Shown here in pieces: positions 1 to 3,901 of a stretch of DNA of 64,000 nucleotides. The stretch is from Enterobacter phage vB_ECC_MY742. Made by a program: the position numbers and the translations under genes. Position 1 is the first letter of the stretch; each line of letters begins with the position of its first letter. The notes under the pieces are model-generated. The model worked only from the letters and a program-made list of their open reading frames with translations. It was not told the origin of the DNA and did not search any database. The stretch lies in the sequence record PV593737.1, one strand, 5' to 3'.

Positions 1-971
1 GTCTCGATATTAACAGTATGGCTATAGTTTGCATCAGACTCATTATTGTAAATGGTTTCTAGTGGCTTCCAGAGCTCAAGGAGATTACCTTCAAATTTCT
101 CAGAGGAATATGCCTCTAATACTTTCATGATGTACTCTGTTGACCCTGTACGTCCTGACACTTTAAATTGGGTGATACCAATATCACGGTAAAGTTTTAG
201 GTCCTGAGGACGCACAAAACGCGTGCGTAACCAGTTGAAAGGGTCGGTGTCTCGAGCTTTAATGCAGTGCTGCATTGGATAACCGTCGAGCGATTTTGCA
301 TCTTCTGCAGTAACGTCGGTACTGTGGAAAATATAGCAAGAATCGCGATAACTACAATGAGTTGTATAGCCTTTGCCCGCGTTAGAGCAAAATTCGTTAA
401 CAAGGACTTCAAAGATAATACCATTTTCATTACAGAATGCTGCGGCCTGCTTCAAGAAATTAACCGAACGGTTTTTATGAATACCACAACAAACTTTCTT
501 AATATTGTATTGGTCATGAAGATATTTGATTTGAGTAACAGCATCAACGTGCAGGATAGTTGATACCTCAATTTCAATTTCTTTATTCACTTCACGAACA
601 ATTTCCATTACTACCGGGTTAGCAATAGTAATTCGCCAGACACCAATTGACCATAGATATTGAACATATTCTTGAATGGCTGCTTTCTTCCATTCGGTGA
701 GTTCACGCTTAGTTCCTGGGTTAATGCTGTTCAACGTATAGTTAAAGCAAATGCCAAGTTCGTTACAACGACGAACATAAACTTCCAGCTCTTCATCTTT
801 TACATCAGGCAGACGGAAATCAGGACGAGCGGCGACAAATGCCATCGCTCGTGTACTTCCGTAAACTTCGTTAATCAGTGATTGCGGATTTTTAGCATTC
901 AACTCAACGATTTTATCAAGAAGTGCCAAGTCAAAATTCGTTCCGATTTTAAATGTATTTTGCATTTTCAT
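1..971 (-). CDS. U32 peptidase-family-like protein, N-terminal ~323 aa only (the ORF runs off the window start, which is why it is missing from the ORF track)
   Basis: Own translation of the minus strand from the ATG at 971-969: MKMQNTFKIGTNFDLALLDKIVELNAKNPQSLINEVYGSTRAMAFVAARPDFRLPDVKDEELEVYVRRCNELGICFNYTLNSI...EIEIEVSTILHVD...NEFCSNAGKGYTTHCSYRDSCYIFHS. There is no stop codon before position 1. The layout (FxR..EEL.E.YV...G..F.Y.LN, then GV..I.IANP, then I.VST, plus a Cys cluster) resembles the U32 family (RlhA, TrhP, UbiU/V). Confidence 0.45.
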   Translation of the reverse strand, partial: MKMQNTFKIGTNFDLALLDKIVELNAKNPQSLINEVYGSTRAMAFVAARPDFRLPDVKDEELEVYVRRCNELGICFNYTLNSINPGTKRELTEWKKAAIQEYVQYLWSIGVWRITIANPVVMEIVREVNKEIEIEVSTILHVDAVTQIKYLHDQYNIKKVCCGIHKNRSVNFLKQAAAFCNENGIIFEVLVNEFCSNAGKGYTTHCSYRDSCYIFHSTDVTAEDAKSLDGYPMQHCIKARDTDPFNWLRTRFVRPQDLKLYRDIGITQFKVSGRTGSTEYIMKVLEAYSSEKFEGNLLELWKPLETIYNNESDANYSHTVNIE

Positions 972-1018
972 CTCTTTTAAGCAGGAAAAGGATGCGATGT
1001 CTTTTGCAGGCTATTAAA

Positions 1019-1405
1019 TTAAAGGTTTGGTTTATAAGATTTAAAAGTTTCGAATTCACCTTTATTCATAAGGCTTTTGAATTCGTCAGGACGCATAGCT
1101 TTGTCATCGATAATCCAATCATACACTGGTTTATGTGTCAGCAATTCATGGAATTTCAAACCGATATTAGCCAGGTTCTGAAGTAGCCCAGGAAGAATAT
1201 CAACTGCAATACGCCCTGGTCCTACAGATTTCATACCGCGAGCAGTATAAAGTGTTATATGATGCCCTTGGTCATAAAGAGCATTAATAGCGGACACCAT
1301 TTCGATGTCCGCCTTGAAGTTTGCATAATCACGGTTATGGTTCCATTCCGTGATGCAATCGTCTACATCAAAACATAGACGAAGCATATTTTCTACACGA
1401 TGCAT
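1019..1405 (-). CDS. HAD-superfamily phosphatase (candidate sugar-phosphate phosphatase)
   Basis: Motif I is LCFDVDDCI (DxDx[T/V]). A Thr motif is ITLYTARG. The C-terminal K...DWIIDDKA gives the Lys and acidic pair. The start was chosen at the ATG that overlaps the upstream TAA (TAATG). The ORF-track start at 1423 would overlap the upstream gene by 19 nt. Confidence 0.65.
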   Translation of the reverse strand: MHRVENMLRLCFDVDDCITEWNHNRDYANFKADIEMVSAINALYDQGHHITLYTARGMKSVGPGRIAVDILPGLLQNLANIGLKFHELLTHKPVYDWIIDDKAMRPDEFKSLMNKGEFETFKSYKPNL

Positions 1406-3090
1406 TATCGAATTCGTTCCCATTGATGAGTGATATCGCCGCCAATTGGTTTATAGACAGCGCCGGTTTCTTTATCGATGAGTTCCCACTTATCACTGTT
1501 CTTTGTAATAAGAGTTGCCGTGATAGCTTCAGGCAGGTCTTTAGCGATGGTGCCATCTTCTAACATACGACCCATTTTACGCAGCTGTTTGGTCAGCAAA
1601 TACATGCCATAATAATATGACGAAACTGCTTTCAATGGGTTGTTCTTGAAATAACCACCAAGGGCAATCCAGATAATCGCCACAGCCAGATGGTGATGTT
1701 CGTTGAACGTATCCATCTTTTCGTATTTGTAGATTAATGGCTCGATATTAACATATGCATGTTCGCCTTCAATATTCAAACCACCCCATAAAGCATCAGC
1801 ATTAAAATCATCGTAGCCACTTACAGCATATAATACTTTTGCTTCATCATACAAGCGTGGACCATAAATCTTACTGTTACCGAAATAACCACGAGGGTCG
1901 ATGAACTTAATATCGCCATCGGTAAACGTAATCATCGTATTACTGAAGTTAGGGTCACCATGAATAATATAGTATTTCTTATTGCTTTGATATGCAACAA
2001 GATGGTTCAATGCTTGTTTAAGCATAGACTTCAGTCGACCAATCTTAACACCGTTCACATGAGTAATCTTACCAAATGAATCAATTACTGGCTGAATACT
2101 TGCACAGCGGTCGATAACCTTGTCGTGGAATTCTTTCTTGAAGTCGTCTTCCAATTCGTGGTTGATTCGATAAAAACCTTTATCATCAAAACGAAGAGCA
2201 TCAAGAACCTTATCAATCATAGAGATACGAGCATTTGATTTAAGAGTTTTGATATGCTCGAACATTGATAGACCTTTAATACGTTCCATAACAAAATGAC
2301 CACCAGGATGTCGGCTTAAAATCTTTGGAACACTTTCACAGTCTTTAAGCCTTGAATACCAGGATAATTCGTCTTTCTGCAATTCATAACCTTGTTCAGT
2401 TAATGCAATTTTAGTCACGGTATCTTCATCGATTTCTACCGCATTAAAACTACGGTTCAGTTCACGGTCAGCATGAGCATTAGCCAGTTTAGGCTTATCG
2501 CCTAAATCGATTAGATTTAGTAGTTCAGATTGACGCATCGATTCACCATAAACGAAATCAACAAAGTCGCGCCCTTCACAGTGGTCATTGATTTCTTCTT
2601 TGGTTATACCCATGAAGAATTCCCAATCTTTAAACTGATAAATGCCTACGACATTACCGCCTGTTGCACCTACATTACGAAGTGAATAGCCATCGAAATT
2701 ATAACGGCATTCATCACCCTTCGTATAAATGGCGTTCTCACCCCAAGACCATGAACCAAAGTCTGGAATAATGTCACACCAGTTCACGACAACATTATGG
2801 CCATCCAGAATAGGATGCAATAATGCTAATGCATAAGCAGAACCATAAGATTCATCTACAGTCTGAACATTAATTTTCAGGCCTTCTTGTTCTGCATAAG
2901 CTTCGACCATGTCCTGGAATTTAGAATGCACGACAACAATAACTTCATCCGCACCTAAATCAGTATAAATGGTCGCTAAGTTTTTGAGAATGGTGTCTTG
3001 TTTATAGTTCACAAGCACTTTAGGGATATGATGGGTAATTGGATATAAACGAGTAGCCAATCCAGCTCCGAGAATAACAGCCTTTTTCAT
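1405..3090 (-). CDS. Bifunctional NDP-sugar pyrophosphorylase (N-terminal) and APH-like anomeric sugar kinase (C-terminal), 561 aa
   Basis: The N-terminus MKKAVILGAGLATRLYPITHHIPKVLV is the G-x-G-x-R nucleotidyltransferase signature, as in RmlA, LicC and MurU. The C-terminus YIIHGDPNFSNTMI...IKFIDPRG is the HGDxxxxN / D-x-x-G pattern of APH, choline-kinase and AmgK kinases. The start was reassigned to the ATG at 3090, which has GAGGA 8 nt upstream. The 97-aa N-terminal extension in the ORF track is not protein-like and overlaps the upstream gene. Confidence 0.7.
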   Translation of the reverse strand: MKKAVILGAGLATRLYPITHHIPKVLVNYKQDTILKNLATIYTDLGADEVIVVVHSKFQDMVEAYAEQEGLKINVQTVDESYGSAYALALLHPILDGHNVVVNWCDIIPDFGSWSWGENAIYTKGDECRYNFDGYSLRNVGATGGNVVGIYQFKDWEFFMGITKEEINDHCEGRDFVDFVYGESMRQSELLNLIDLGDKPKLANAHADRELNRSFNAVEIDEDTVTKIALTEQGYELQKDELSWYSRLKDCESVPKILSRHPGGHFVMERIKGLSMFEHIKTLKSNARISMIDKVLDALRFDDKGFYRINHELEDDFKKEFHDKVIDRCASIQPVIDSFGKITHVNGVKIGRLKSMLKQALNHLVAYQSNKKYYIIHGDPNFSNTMITFTDGDIKFIDPRGYFGNSKIYGPRLYDEAKVLYAVSGYDDFNADALWGGLNIEGEHAYVNIEPLIYKYEKMDTFNEHHHLAVAIIWIALGGYFKNNPLKAVSSYYYGMYLLTKQLRKMGRMLEDGTIAKDLPEAITATLITKNSDKWELIDKETGAVYKPIGGDITHQWERIR

Positions 3091-3271
3091 TTTGTGTTCC
3101 TCATTAAATGGTACATCCATTGTACCATAATTTAATTGAAGCAATTGTATTTGGCCTGGAGCCAGAGCATAATCCAAGCTACAATTAATGTAGGTATCAT
3201 AGCTGGAGCCATGATAGCCCAGTAGATAGTCATTCCGAAGAAGGCTAACAGAAGGAATCCGGTCAAGTACT

Positions 3272-3901
3272 TCATTTGTCACCACGGAGCATTGCACCAA
3301 GTGCACCACCAGGATGGAAGCGCAGGAAGTCGTCAGGCGTAAAGTCACGTGCGGCTGAAAGGTTAATTGCGAACGTGTCAATAAGAGCCAAGAGCAGAGT
3401 CGTAGACATCGTAGGCGCTAATTTGTTATCGTCGACTTCGATAGCCTTACCTGTGCAGAAGGTGTAGTCGAACATCTTCAGGATATCATTACTCAGGTCT
3501 GGGTTACAATGCAGCAGAATCTGGTTTACGCCAGGACGAATGCCACGCAAATGGTTAACAACGCCTAACATCTCTTCAGTTTTACCTGAACGGGAGATAT
3601 GGACCAGCACATCATTAGGACCGATGAAGCCTGCATCACCATGAGAATAATGACCTGTGTTCAGATACATACTTGGAATACCAAGTGAGGCCATTGTTTC
3701 TGAAGCCTTAGTGGCGATGTTAGCGTTTTTACCCACACCAGTGATAATTACACGACCTTCATAATTAGAAAGCCCAGGGACGCTCAGAACACTCAGGATT
3801 TGCTGGTAGTTTTCATAATCAGAACTCACTGCAGAGGCTAGTTTATCTAAAGCAAGAGACTGAAGAAATAGTGCGTATTTTGCTCGTTCAATTGGATGCA
3901 T
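3272..3901 (-). CDS. SIS-domain sugar-phosphate isomerase, KdsD/KpsF-like arabinose-5-phosphate isomerase without CBS domains
   Basis: The protein carries ITGVGKNANIATKASETMASLGIP...DVLVHISRSGKTEE...RFHPGGALG. This is the SIS phosphosugar-binding fold with the HPGGxLG tail typical of D-arabinose-5-P isomerases. Confidence 0.7.
   Translation of the reverse strand: MHPIERAKYALFLQSLALDKLASAVSSDYENYQQILSVLSVPGLSNYEGRVIITGVGKNANIATKASETMASLGIPSMYLNTGHYSHGDAGFIGPNDVLVHISRSGKTEEMLGVVNHLRGIRPGVNQILLHCNPDLSNDILKMFDYTFCTGKAIEVDDNKLAPTMSTTLLLALIDTFAINLSAARDFTPDDFLRFHPGGALGAMLRGDK

Follow-up and report, generated by a model that had tools for sequence, protein, structure and literature searches.

Bacteriophage RB69 carries arabinose on its DNA, and its proteins gp52-55 were originally proposed as the source of UDP-arabinose for an arabinosylated 5-hydroxymethylcytosine (hmC) (Thomas 2018, PMC6024577). 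Mass spectrometry (MS) and nuclear magnetic resonance (NMR) have since shown that the sugar of RB69 is ether-linked at C5 of 5-hydroxycytosine, not of hmC (Lee et al. 2026, PMC13326640), and an independent MS study called the hmC assignment erroneous (PMC13390438). The acceptor arises from the thymidylate synthase (TS) homologue gp48 of RB69, which makes 5-hydroxy-dCMP (5hodCMP) with flavin and molecular oxygen, as established by 18O2 labelling (PMC13326640). The donor pathway of phage HY126 was reconstituted by He et al.; in the account of that work given in PMC13326640, the kinase AfhE converts arabinose-5-phosphate (Ara5P) into arabinose-1,5-bisphosphate (Ara-1,5-P2), AfhF takes the 5-phosphate off to leave arabinose-1-phosphate (Ara-1-P), and the N-domain of AfhE generates UDP-arabinofuranose (UDP-Araf). 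Here we analyse a stretch of 64,000 nucleotides from Enterobacter phage vB_ECC_MY742 (record PV593737.1; referred to as the window), in which positions 1..3901, close to the DNA polymerase gene 43, hold a sugar-nucleotide cassette resembling this donor branch. The system itself is already known, having been published between 2018 and 2026, and the lineage of this phage has been named as a carrier, the Kanagawaviruses being listed among the genera with a syntenic cluster (PMC13326640).

The probable sugar-donor cassette and its predicted off-window partners

Judging from protein similarity and gene order, positions 1..3901 very probably constitute the sugar-donor branch of an arabinosyl-5-hydroxycytosine system of the type found in RB69-like T4 relatives. 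In the open reading frame (ORF) list, all genes at positions 1..7177 lie on the minus strand. Leftward from gene 43 (4472..7177, minus strand; 62% identity to T4 gp43 and 79% to RB69 gp43), which serves as the landmark, they encode a lipoprotein, a SIS isomerase, a 47-aa peptide, a nucleotidyltransferase/kinase fusion, a HAD protein and a U32-family protein, and the gene order of the cassette is the same in RB69 and in Enterobacter phage Entb_45. An earlier annotation of this DNA, made from the letters without database searches (the sequence-only reading), had described this order 3' of gene 43, and all of its ORFs are present on the minus strand; the 47-aa ORF had been overlooked. The ORFs of the cassette did not arise by chance: they are long, and 200–370 phage records contain close homologues of them. 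Positions 1..4500 show 93–94% identity to the Enterobacter phages Entb_45 and vB_EclM_CIP9 (genus Kanagawavirus) and 77–87% identity to other Kanagawaviruses, Edwardsiella phages PEi20/26, Serratia CHI14-like phages and Mosigviruses, and the composition of the region is ordinary, with a GC content of 38–44%.

The isomerase gene (3272..3901, minus strand) encodes a SIS-only protein of 209 aa, orthologous to RB69 gp55 (71% identity) and predicted to convert ribulose-5-phosphate (Ru5P) into Ara5P. Its NCBIfam matches, KpsF/GutQ (4.2e-33), KdsD (1.2e-29) and GutQ (1e-22), all lie below the equivalog cut-offs; the KdsD/GutQ equivalog comparison gave 103.6 bits against a cut-off of 505 and covered model positions 45–202 of 328. 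In the PDB, the protein matched 3etn (3e-24) and 2xhz (1.6e-17), and 5uqi is also a relative. The SIS protein probably works like KdsD, though it is no equivalog.

The AfhE-type bifunctional fusion, consisting of 561 aa, is encoded at 1405..3090 (minus strand). The mechanical ORF list runs this gene to a TTG at 3381, and its true start is the ATG at 3090, which is preceded by GAGGAA. The N-terminal domain is a sugar-1-phosphate nucleotidyltransferase, with the motif GAGLATR at 3049..3069 (minus strand), that matched Pfam NTP_transferase (4.5e-10), LicC (PDB 1jyk), NCBIfam nucleotidyltransferase families, and the MurU, GalU and GlmU models. The C-terminal domain is APH/choline-kinase-like by its motifs HGDPNFSN (1939..1962) and IDPRG (1888..1902), both on the minus strand, and represents a putative arabinose-5-phosphate 1-kinase. 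The fusion exhibits 78% identity to RB69 gp53 and 65% to gp52, which form one gene split by a sequencing error (PMC6024577), and 70.7% identity over its full length to the biochemically characterised AfhE of HY126. Next to it, at 1019..1423 (minus strand), lies the gene of a 134-aa AfhF-type HAD phosphatase, the orthologue of RB69 gp51 (89% identity), with a DVDD motif at 1358..1369 and matches to PDB entries 9IQW (2.7e-80) and 1xpj (3.7e-9) and to TIGR01689, the EcbF-BcbF capsule phosphatase family (1.2e-11). The window therefore holds the isomerase, AfhE and AfhF components of an Afh-type system, with predicted enzyme functions.

Four steps can be assigned to these enzymes because of their strong orthology to proteins characterised by others. 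The SIS enzyme would turn Ru5P into D-Ara5P, the AfhE-type kinase domain would phosphorylate C1 to give arabinofuranose-1,5-bisphosphate, the AfhF-type HAD phosphatase would strip the 5-phosphate, and the nucleotidyltransferase domain of the fusion would finally form UDP-Araf; the U32 gene would be unnecessary for any of these steps. The sequence-only reading had taken the cassette for the precursor half of the RB69-type system, and the 65–89% identities to RB69 proteins bear this out. Its assignments of isomerase, fused nucleotidyltransferase/kinase and HAD phosphatase also hold (71%, 65–78% and 89% identity to gp55, gp53/52 and gp51, respectively), and the comparison it had proposed with RB69 ORFs and the KdsD, MurU and LicC families placed the SIS, nucleotidyltransferase and HAD proteins in fitting families. 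As to the pathway, its enzyme classes were right and its order was not: it had the phosphatase act before the kinase, and the HY126 kinase acts before the phosphatase in the account of PMC13326640.

The rest of the system would be encoded to the left of the window, as judged from Entb_45. Beyond the U32 gene, Entb_45 carries, in order, the genes of a 79-aa chorismate mutase, a TS homologue, a 299-aa protein, a 183-aa protein, and uvsX. The TS homologue, situated 0.5 kb left of the point matching the window edge, matched PDB 9IQU (1.9e-134) as well as 9IQC and 9IR2 (about 1e-134), and exhibits 84% identity to RB69 gp48 and 24% to T4 gp42. Its motif MRSQNC..QLD stands in place of QRSCDV..PFN in E. 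coli ThyA and thus contains, in ThyA numbering, D169N and N177D, a combination published as a predictor of 5hodCMP synthases; a T4-type gp42 would retain D169, and Entb_45 has N at this position. The 299-aa protein is 64–75% identical to RB69 gp47/gp46 (arabinosyltransferase 1), and the 183-aa protein is 72% identical to the RB69 nucleotide kinase gp45. In the phage under study, a D169N TS homologue would thus hydroxylate dCMP with flavin and O2, a thymidylate kinase (TMPK)-like nucleotide kinase would accompany it, the DNA polymerase would insert 5-hydroxy-dCTP, and the 299-aa transferase would then arabinosylate the DNA. For the transferase, the sequence-only reading had offered two locations. 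The off-window one agrees with Entb_45, in which this gene follows the TS homologue; the truncated ORF at 1..971 is instead the U32 gene, with 88% identity to RB69 gp50.

Homologues of RB69 gp3, the second arabinosyltransferase, were confined to Mosigviruses, to Acinetobacter phages, each with two copies, and to a single Tegunavirus; no Enterobacter phage record had one, Kanagawaviruses included. Since Enterobacter phages have no gp3-type second transferase, one arabinose per cytosine is predicted here, not a di- or triarabinosylated base. Together, these observations suggest that the length of the arabinose chain is lineage-specific.

The window is also devoid of the glucosyltransferases of T4. 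The interval between gene 47 (13008..14027) and gene 55 (about 15126..15701), all on the minus strand, spans 14028..15125 and contains only homologues of 47.1, a-gt.2, a-gt.3, a-gt.4 and a-gt.5; at the T4 alpha-gt position (1.1 kb), alpha-gt and mobB are cleanly absent according to the ORF list and tblastn with T4 proteins. The claim of the sequence-only reading that no alpha-gt lies between 47 and 55 is thereby confirmed, the range it quoted, 13008..15701, including genes 47 and 55 themselves. It had also asked for alpha-gt and beta-gt elsewhere, and neither was found by tblastn across the 64-kb window. Searches of the window with T4 alpha-gt, T4 beta-gt, RB69 gp3 and the gp46:47-type transferase gave a best E value of at least 0.16; for T4 alpha-gt and beta-gt nothing was better than E = 0.44, and neither had a tblastn match in the Entb_45 locus. 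Likewise, no glycosyltransferase is annotated across the matching 48 kb of Entb_45.

Two other explanations of the cassette were considered. In the first, isomerase, phosphatase, kinase and pyrophosphorylase act in this order through free arabinose and feed arabinosyl-hmC, with hmC supplied by a T4-type gp42. This scheme follows the 2018 RB69 paper (PMC6024577), employs the same four enzyme classes, and finds an echo in Table 1 of PMC13326640, where the HAD step is given as 'dephosphorylates Araf5p to Ara'. For RB69 it is refuted by the ether link to 5-hydroxycytosine, seen by NMR and MS (PMC13326640) and again by MS (PMC13390438), so the arabinosyl-hmC that the sequence-only reading had named as the modified base gives way to arabinosyl-5-hydroxycytosine. 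Moreover, as PMC13326640 relates the HY126 work, the kinase uses Ara5P and the phosphatase uses Ara-1,5-P2, and the Entb_45 TS homologue has D169N and only 24% identity to T4 gp42. We therefore regard the arabinosyl-hmC scheme as very improbable.

Slightly less credible still is an auxiliary moron that alters the host surface polysaccharide (capsule, lipopolysaccharide or Kdo supply). The best family names, the KpsF/GutQ capsule isomerase and the EcbF-BcbF 'capsule biosynthesis phosphatase', would fit such a role, PHROGs places two of the genes in 'moron, auxiliary metabolic gene', and several GenBank records read 'capsule biosynthesis protein'. The genes, however, lie between gene 43 and uvsX, in the early replication and nucleotide-metabolism region; in all relatives examined, the cassette forms an unbroken run with the genes of a dCMP-modifying enzyme, a nucleotide kinase and a homologue of DNA glycosyltransferases; arabinose has been shown on the DNA of RB69 and HY126 (PMC6024577, PMC13326640); and no Kdo8P synthase, flippase or polymerase is present.

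Several points weigh against assigning the cassette to an arabinosyl-5-hydroxycytosine system. The genes for hydroxylase, transferase and dCTPase would lie off-window, their presence being deduced from a 94%-identical relative, and the SIS, HAD and nucleotidyltransferase scores are all under the NCBIfam equivalog cut-offs. In addition, the cassette is a mosaic with respect to Entb_45, so the unseen left flank could differ as well. Within 1..3090, nucleotide identity to Entb_45 (locus L001) is 99.0% for the U32 gene (dS, synonymous substitutions per site, 0.05), 96% for the HAD gene and 86% for the AfhE-type gene (dS 0.54), and this drop implies a recombination breakpoint near the HAD/AfhE junction. 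The gene content of the Entb_45 left flank is likely, not certain, to hold for this phage too.

The U32-family protein and its chorismate mutase neighbour

The U32 proteins UbiU/V, TrhP and RlhA are Fe-S proteins needed for O2-independent hydroxylations (PMC10990095, PMC6599085, PMC5727448, PMC6747719). U32 hydroxylases take their oxygen from prephenate, which chorismate mutase produces (PMC10990095, PMC6599085, PMC5727448), and on nucleic acids RlhA accounts for ho5C2501 in 23S rRNA and TrhP for ho5U34 in tRNA (PMC5727448, PMC6599085). The phage 5hodCMP synthase that has been demonstrated requires O2 (PMC13326640). From sequence and gene neighbourhood, we propose, at even odds, that the U32 protein of the cassette and the adjacent chorismate mutase may hydroxylate pyrimidines at C5 without O2 and at the expense of prephenate, yielding 5-hydroxy-dCMP, or 5-hydroxycytosine (5hoC) in DNA.

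The U32 gene (1..971, minus strand) is cut by the window edge, so that the N-terminal 323 of about 388–390 aa are visible. The protein matched Pfam PF01136 Peptidase_U32 (1.9e-11; 44.2 bits against a cut-off of 22.4), exhibits 88% identity to its orthologue RB69 gp50, and is 100% identical in amino acid sequence to the Entb_45 and CIP9 proteins over the visible part. Its AlphaFold2 (AF2) model has a mean confidence score (pLDDT) of 92.4, and the top PDB match by Foldseek was 5D88, the only U32 structure; a search of PDB sequences with the family profile returned only a spurious BIM1 match. In the window, the cysteine motif C-x10-C-x5-CY-x2-H...C lies at 264..389 (minus strand) and comprises C195, C206, C212 and C236 (window numbering), which are candidate [4Fe-4S] ligands and do not vary among 62 family members. 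In the alignment of these members, nine cysteines are invariant, namely C159, C193, C204, C210 and C234 and those of a C-terminal Cx4Cx3Cx2C motif, which lies outside the window.

The spacing Cx10Cx5Cx23C differs from the typical Cx6Cx15Cx3-4C of U32 hydroxylases, and only the central C..CY..H aligns with RlhA. In an hhalign comparison with E. coli RlhA (probability 83%, E 9e-6), C206..C212-Y-x2-H fell on Cx6C-Y-x2-H. The cut-offs of curated U32 subfamilies were not reached, the best NCBIfam matches, UbiU (3.4e-5) and TrhP (2.5e-4), being far below them. By these sequence criteria, the protein belongs to a separate, virus-associated clade; the core motif aligns with RlhA, and we do not claim RlhA as its closest subfamily.

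This clade is strongly conserved. All 221 GenBank phage records of the U32 protein show at least 80% identity over the full length; in the same genera, identity of the AfhE fusion drops to 44–46%. In comparison with RB69, TG1 and Thanatos, the U32 gene has a proportion of synonymous differences (pS) of 0.74–0.81, which is saturated, nonsynonymous divergence (dN) of 0.09–0.15, and dN/dS of at most 0.03; among Kanagawavirus relatives, dN/dS of AfhE is about 0.14–0.16. The U32 protein is more conserved than the DNA polymerase (88% versus 79% to RB69), and its gene is the most constrained of the cassette. Recent horizontal transfer was rejected as the cause of the high identity, since synonymous sites are saturated in the comparisons with RB69, TG1 and Thanatos.

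The chorismate mutase of Entb_45 (L001 11563..11802) scored 40.9 bits with Pfam CM_2, against a cut-off of 27, and the phage enzyme keeps the catalytic residues R11, R28, K39, E52, S84 and Q88 of the E. coli enzyme (EcCM). Its adjacency to U32 is kept in four arrangements, those of Entb_45, Tegunavirus TG1, Marfavirus F48 and Shewanella phage Thanatos-1, and in F48 and Thanatos-1 the pair adjoins kinase or TS genes, not sugar genes. Overall, 50 phage records of GenBank and 13 of the 15 T4-like loci from IMG/VR have a chorismate mutase beside U32. Within the genus Kanagawavirus, phages Q7622 (L004 6262..7318), IME523, ZX14 and Kosakonia phage 305 have neither U32 nor mutase, and the HAD gene abuts the TS homologue; the absence is a clean two-gene indel, which offers a ready natural comparison. 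RB69 gp49 (L002 5257..5496, phrog_8601) showed no similarity to chorismate mutase by Pfam, BLASTP or alignment, and the U32-mutase link therefore does not hold for Mosigviruses. In both lineages the slot after U32 is occupied by a 79-aa protein, RB69 gp49 being either an extremely diverged mutase or a replacement.

The distribution of U32 across hosts was also considered. Among the matches listed, U32 carriers come from phages of Enterobacterales genera, plus Shewanella, and no Acinetobacter phage has U32, though 57 carry AfhE. Acinetobacter is a strict aerobe, and the named hosts of U32 carriers are facultative anaerobes.

Homologues of U32 with 39–58% identity are numerous in metagenomes, and the six such loci examined are phage-like contigs with nucleotide-metabolism neighbours. 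An IMG/VR scan yielded 45 U32 loci, in which partner genes were sought with hidden Markov models and six-frame scoring in 8-kb flanks on each side. U32 co-occurs with a TS homologue in all 15 T4-like loci. An arabinosyltransferase 1 homologue was found in 18 of the 27 non-T4-like loci (in 13 by a direct phmmer search from the Entb_45 protein, with E values of 1e-16 to 2e-5), a TMPK-like kinase in about 19, AfhE with SIS in 10, and a KdsC-type HAD in 9. In five of the 27, a MazG-like pyrophosphatase, a kinase, the transferase and U32 form a contiguous operon, and the 8-kb flanks contain neither AfhE nor SIS nor HAD. Compact operons with these four genes were noted in L040, L042, L044, L053 and L058 and in the contigs L066-L068 described below, some of them also having AfhE, SIS and HAD or a fusion of DAHP synthase and chorismate mutase; a TS homologue of the 5hodCMP-synthase type within 8 kb was found in none. 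Even at E values up to 1, no such TS homologue was detected within 8 kb on either side in the non-T4-like loci, the sole TS-fold ORF being a plain ThyA, with E values of 6.7e-41 against the E. coli enzyme and 0.002 against that of the phage.

A fusion of DAHP synthase and chorismate mutase (Pfam DAHP_synth_1 3.9e-25, CM_2 5.4e-20) adjoins U32, or stands one gene off, in five of the 27 non-T4-like loci. Such fusions occur in L037, L046-L049 and L067, a standalone mutase occurs in L066, and L006 has a DAHP synthase alone (2.6e-70). The possibility that this neighbour is an Ara5P-using Kdo8P synthase was rejected on its scores, 237 bits for DAHP against 63 for KDO8P, and on its fusion to CM_2 in five to six loci. 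In GTDB genomes, the U32 family was located on nine contigs, three of which (L066-L068) have the same operons; the contigs were binned with Erysipelotrichales, Gastranaerophilaceae, Oscillospiraceae, Tannerella, Phocaeicola, Angelakisella and others. These taxa are mostly obligate anaerobes. The non-T4 uncultured phages with U32 operons probably have an undescribed glycosylated hydroxypyrimidine DNA.

If the proposed hydroxylase exists, its role would differ between phages. A phage that degrades dCTP would be unable to copy its DNA in an anoxic host if it depended on a hydroxylase that requires O2. In T4-like phages of facultative anaerobes, the U32/mutase pair would be the anaerobic twin of the flavin- and O2-dependent TS-like hydroxylase; in a broader group of non-T4 phages, several of them binned with obligate anaerobes, U32 alone would fill the hydroxylase position (the 'gp42 slot') of a dCTPase-kinase-transferase module. 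The substrate could be dCMP, another nucleotide or the DNA itself, and dUMP is possible given the adjacent dCMP deaminase of some loci. Immediately upstream of U32, such a deaminase is encoded in two large metagenomic phage contigs with a PolIII-alpha replicase (L005 7447..8004 and L007 7504..7929), overlapping U32 in L005, and the substrate in these two might be dUMP rather than dCMP.

An unlikely alternative places U32 in the sugar branch, as a sugar or heterocycle reductase or as an enzyme tailoring the arabinose donor. RB69 gp50 is labelled 'sugar or heterocycle reductase' in Table 1 of PMC13326640, with no discussion beyond that label; the annotation of phage AlbertHofmann reads 'putative enzyme involved in UDP-arabinose biosynthesis'; and U32 adjoins the HAD gene in the window and shares one operon with AfhE and SIS in ten non-T4 loci. 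Nevertheless, AfhE and AfhF alone are reported to make UDP-Araf from Ara5P, as PMC13326640 presents that work. Kanagawaviruses without U32 retain the whole sugar branch, and the five MazG-kinase-transferase-U32 operons mentioned above show the converse, with no sugar genes within 8 kb. The placement of U32 beside kinase or TS genes in Thanatos-1 and F48 also speaks against a sugar role, as does the linked chorismate mutase, which has no role in pentose chemistry.

A further possibility, which we consider distinctly improbable, is that U32 and the mutase act on RNA, by hydroxylating tRNA U34 or rRNA C2501 or by providing prephenate for CmoA, and so tune translation. The only characterised U32 enzymes of nucleic acids do act on RNA (PMC6599085, PMC5727448), the best profile match is RlhA, and the phages carry tRNA clusters. 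The neighbourhood, in contrast, points to DNA: DNA-glycosylation genes lie near U32 in phage loci of this clade (about 20 T4-like ones and 18 of the 27 non-T4 ones), the GenBank genus counts are nearly nested, and U32 shares its operons with genes for a dCTPase-like protein, a nucleotide kinase and a DNA glycosyltransferase, with no tRNA-modification genes adjacent. That U32 is a true peptidase or collagenase, as database names alone would have it, is hardly credible, since the family name is historical and its characterised members are Fe-S hydroxylation factors (PMC6747719, PMC10990095), and since the protein has invariant cysteines and a nucleotide-metabolism context.

The proposal of a prephenate-dependent pyrimidine hydroxylase must itself be set against several observations. 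Most carriers are Mosigviruses, and in these, RB69 included, no chorismate mutase can be recognised beside U32, and E. coli Dhakaviruses and some Kanagawaviruses have no U32 despite facultatively anaerobic hosts. The hhalign comparisons of U32 with TrhP (21% probability) and UbiU (5%) were not significant, and the absence of a TS homologue from the non-T4-like loci is limited to their 8-kb flanks. Finally, full-text literature searches yielded nothing that links U32 to phage arabinosyl-cytosine, and He 2026 and Mahler 2025, which lay outside those searches, may assign the gene.

Neighbouring genes and other sequence features

Between the SIS and AfhE-type genes, at 3132..3275 (minus strand), lies the ORF of a hydrophobic 47-aa peptide of the RB69 gp54 family, whose start overlaps the SIS stop codon (ATGA). 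It shows 70% identity to RB69 gp54, matches phrog_3610 (2.2e-25), and is also annotated in Q7622 and TG1. Its identification with T4 Imm was rejected, as there is no similarity to that protein; conceivable roles of the membrane peptide are membrane anchoring and regulation of the cassette. At 3108..3128, in the gap that separates this ORF from the Shine-Dalgarno sequence and start codon of the AfhE-type gene, a perfect stem of 8 bp encloses a loop of 5 nt, ATGGTACA-TCCAT-TGTACCAT on the plus strand, which could be a translational or RNA-processing element.

The lipoprotein gene (3888..4415, minus strand) encodes 175 aa with the lipobox LLTGC and belongs to phrog_1754, with no Pfam or NCBIfam match. 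The sequence-only reading had included it in the cassette. Being a distant homologue of T4 imm.1 (tblastn 3.5e-5), it is a T4 backbone gene outside the sugar cassette; the T4 backbone order is 43, imm.1, imm, 42, beta-gt, and RB69 does not have the imm.1-like lipoprotein.

Immediately 3' of gene 43, at 4432..4470 (minus strand), there is a hairpin with a 12-bp stem followed by a T run, which overlaps a promoter-like TTTACA-17-TAGAAT, extended by TG, a short way ahead of the lipoprotein gene. Across 1..4600, the count of promoter-like and terminator-like sites did not exceed the expectation from shuffled sequence. T4 and RB69 carry nrdH, nrdG and nrdD after gene 55; of these, only an nrdH-like glutaredoxin, encoded at 18379..18681, was found in the region 15700..19000. 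T4 NrdG had no tblastn match in the 64-kb window, and no anaerobic ribonucleotide reductase is annotated in the matching Entb_45 region (L018, 41800..46000). A phage anaerobic ribonucleotide reductase as a sign of an anaerobic lifestyle was dropped here, as nrdG had no match.

Implications and comparison with known systems

For this phage, the value of the analysis lies mainly in correct annotation, that is, in the prediction of (mono-)arabinosyl-5-hydroxycytosine DNA. The predicted modification bears on restriction and CRISPR sensitivity, sequencing, cloning and targeting by host defences, and GmrSD/BrxU-type enzymes cut such arabinosylated DNA (PMC13390438). The residual interest resides in the U32/chorismate mutase pair, which leads to a specific and cheaply testable hypothesis. 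The sole demonstrated route to 5hodCMP needs O2, which is paradoxical for phages that destroy dCTP and whose hosts in many cases inhabit the anoxic gut; a U32 hydroxylase driven by prephenate, if real, would resolve the paradox. Such an enzyme would give the U32 family its first member that works on DNA precursors, would constitute the first pathway without oxygen to a hypermodified base in a phage, and would provide a soluble system with a small substrate for the long-sought in vitro assay of U32 and prephenate. It would also mark many uncultured phages that infect anaerobes as having glycosylated hydroxypyrimidines.

Compared with RlhA, TrhP and UbiUV, the phage U32 protein shares the TIM-barrel fold and the link to prephenate supply, seen here in the genomic neighbourhood, and its C..C-Y-x2-H core aligns with the RlhA motif; it differs by its clade, its cysteine spacing, the extra C-terminal Cx4Cx3Cx2C and its presumed deoxynucleotide or DNA substrate. 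As in the pairs TrhO/TrhP and UbiIHF/UbiUV, it stands alongside an O2-dependent enzyme for the proposed same product. The SIS protein has the SIS fold and the GxGK, SxSG and HGD motifs in common with KdsD/GutQ and with Bacteroides fragilis 3etn; unlike KdsD/GutQ, it consists of 209 aa without the tandem CBS pair and scores far under their equivalog cut-offs. The fusion shares an N-terminal Rossmann nucleotidyltransferase and a C-terminal APH/ChoK catalytic loop with enzymes of the MurU/AmgK, LicC/LicA and GlmU types, from which it differs in having both activities on one chain. Furthermore, the AfhE kinase of HY126, in the description given by PMC13326640, converts a sugar 5-phosphate to the 1,5-bisphosphate and does not use a free sugar.

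At the level of the whole locus, the closest counterpart is the Afh system of RB69 and HY126, which fills the stretch from gene 43 to uvsX with an identical set and order of genes, at identities of 65–89%. The locus differs from that of RB69 by the extra imm.1-like lipoprotein gene between gene 43 and the isomerase gene, and RB69 has the unrelated 79-aa gp49 after U32 where the Kanagawavirus lineage has a recognisable chorismate mutase. The glucosyl-hmC system of T4 (gp56, gp42, gp1, alpha-gt and beta-gt) follows the same logic and uses the same genomic slots: in this lineage too, a dCMP-modifying TS homologue adjoins gene 43 and a transferase occupies the beta-gt slot, and 47.1 and a-gt.2 to a-gt.5 are kept. 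T4 differs in drawing on host UDP-glucose as donor and on a 5-hydroxymethyl acceptor; here, the donor would be a phage-made UDP-pentose and the acceptor a 5-hydroxy base produced by a D169N TS homologue.

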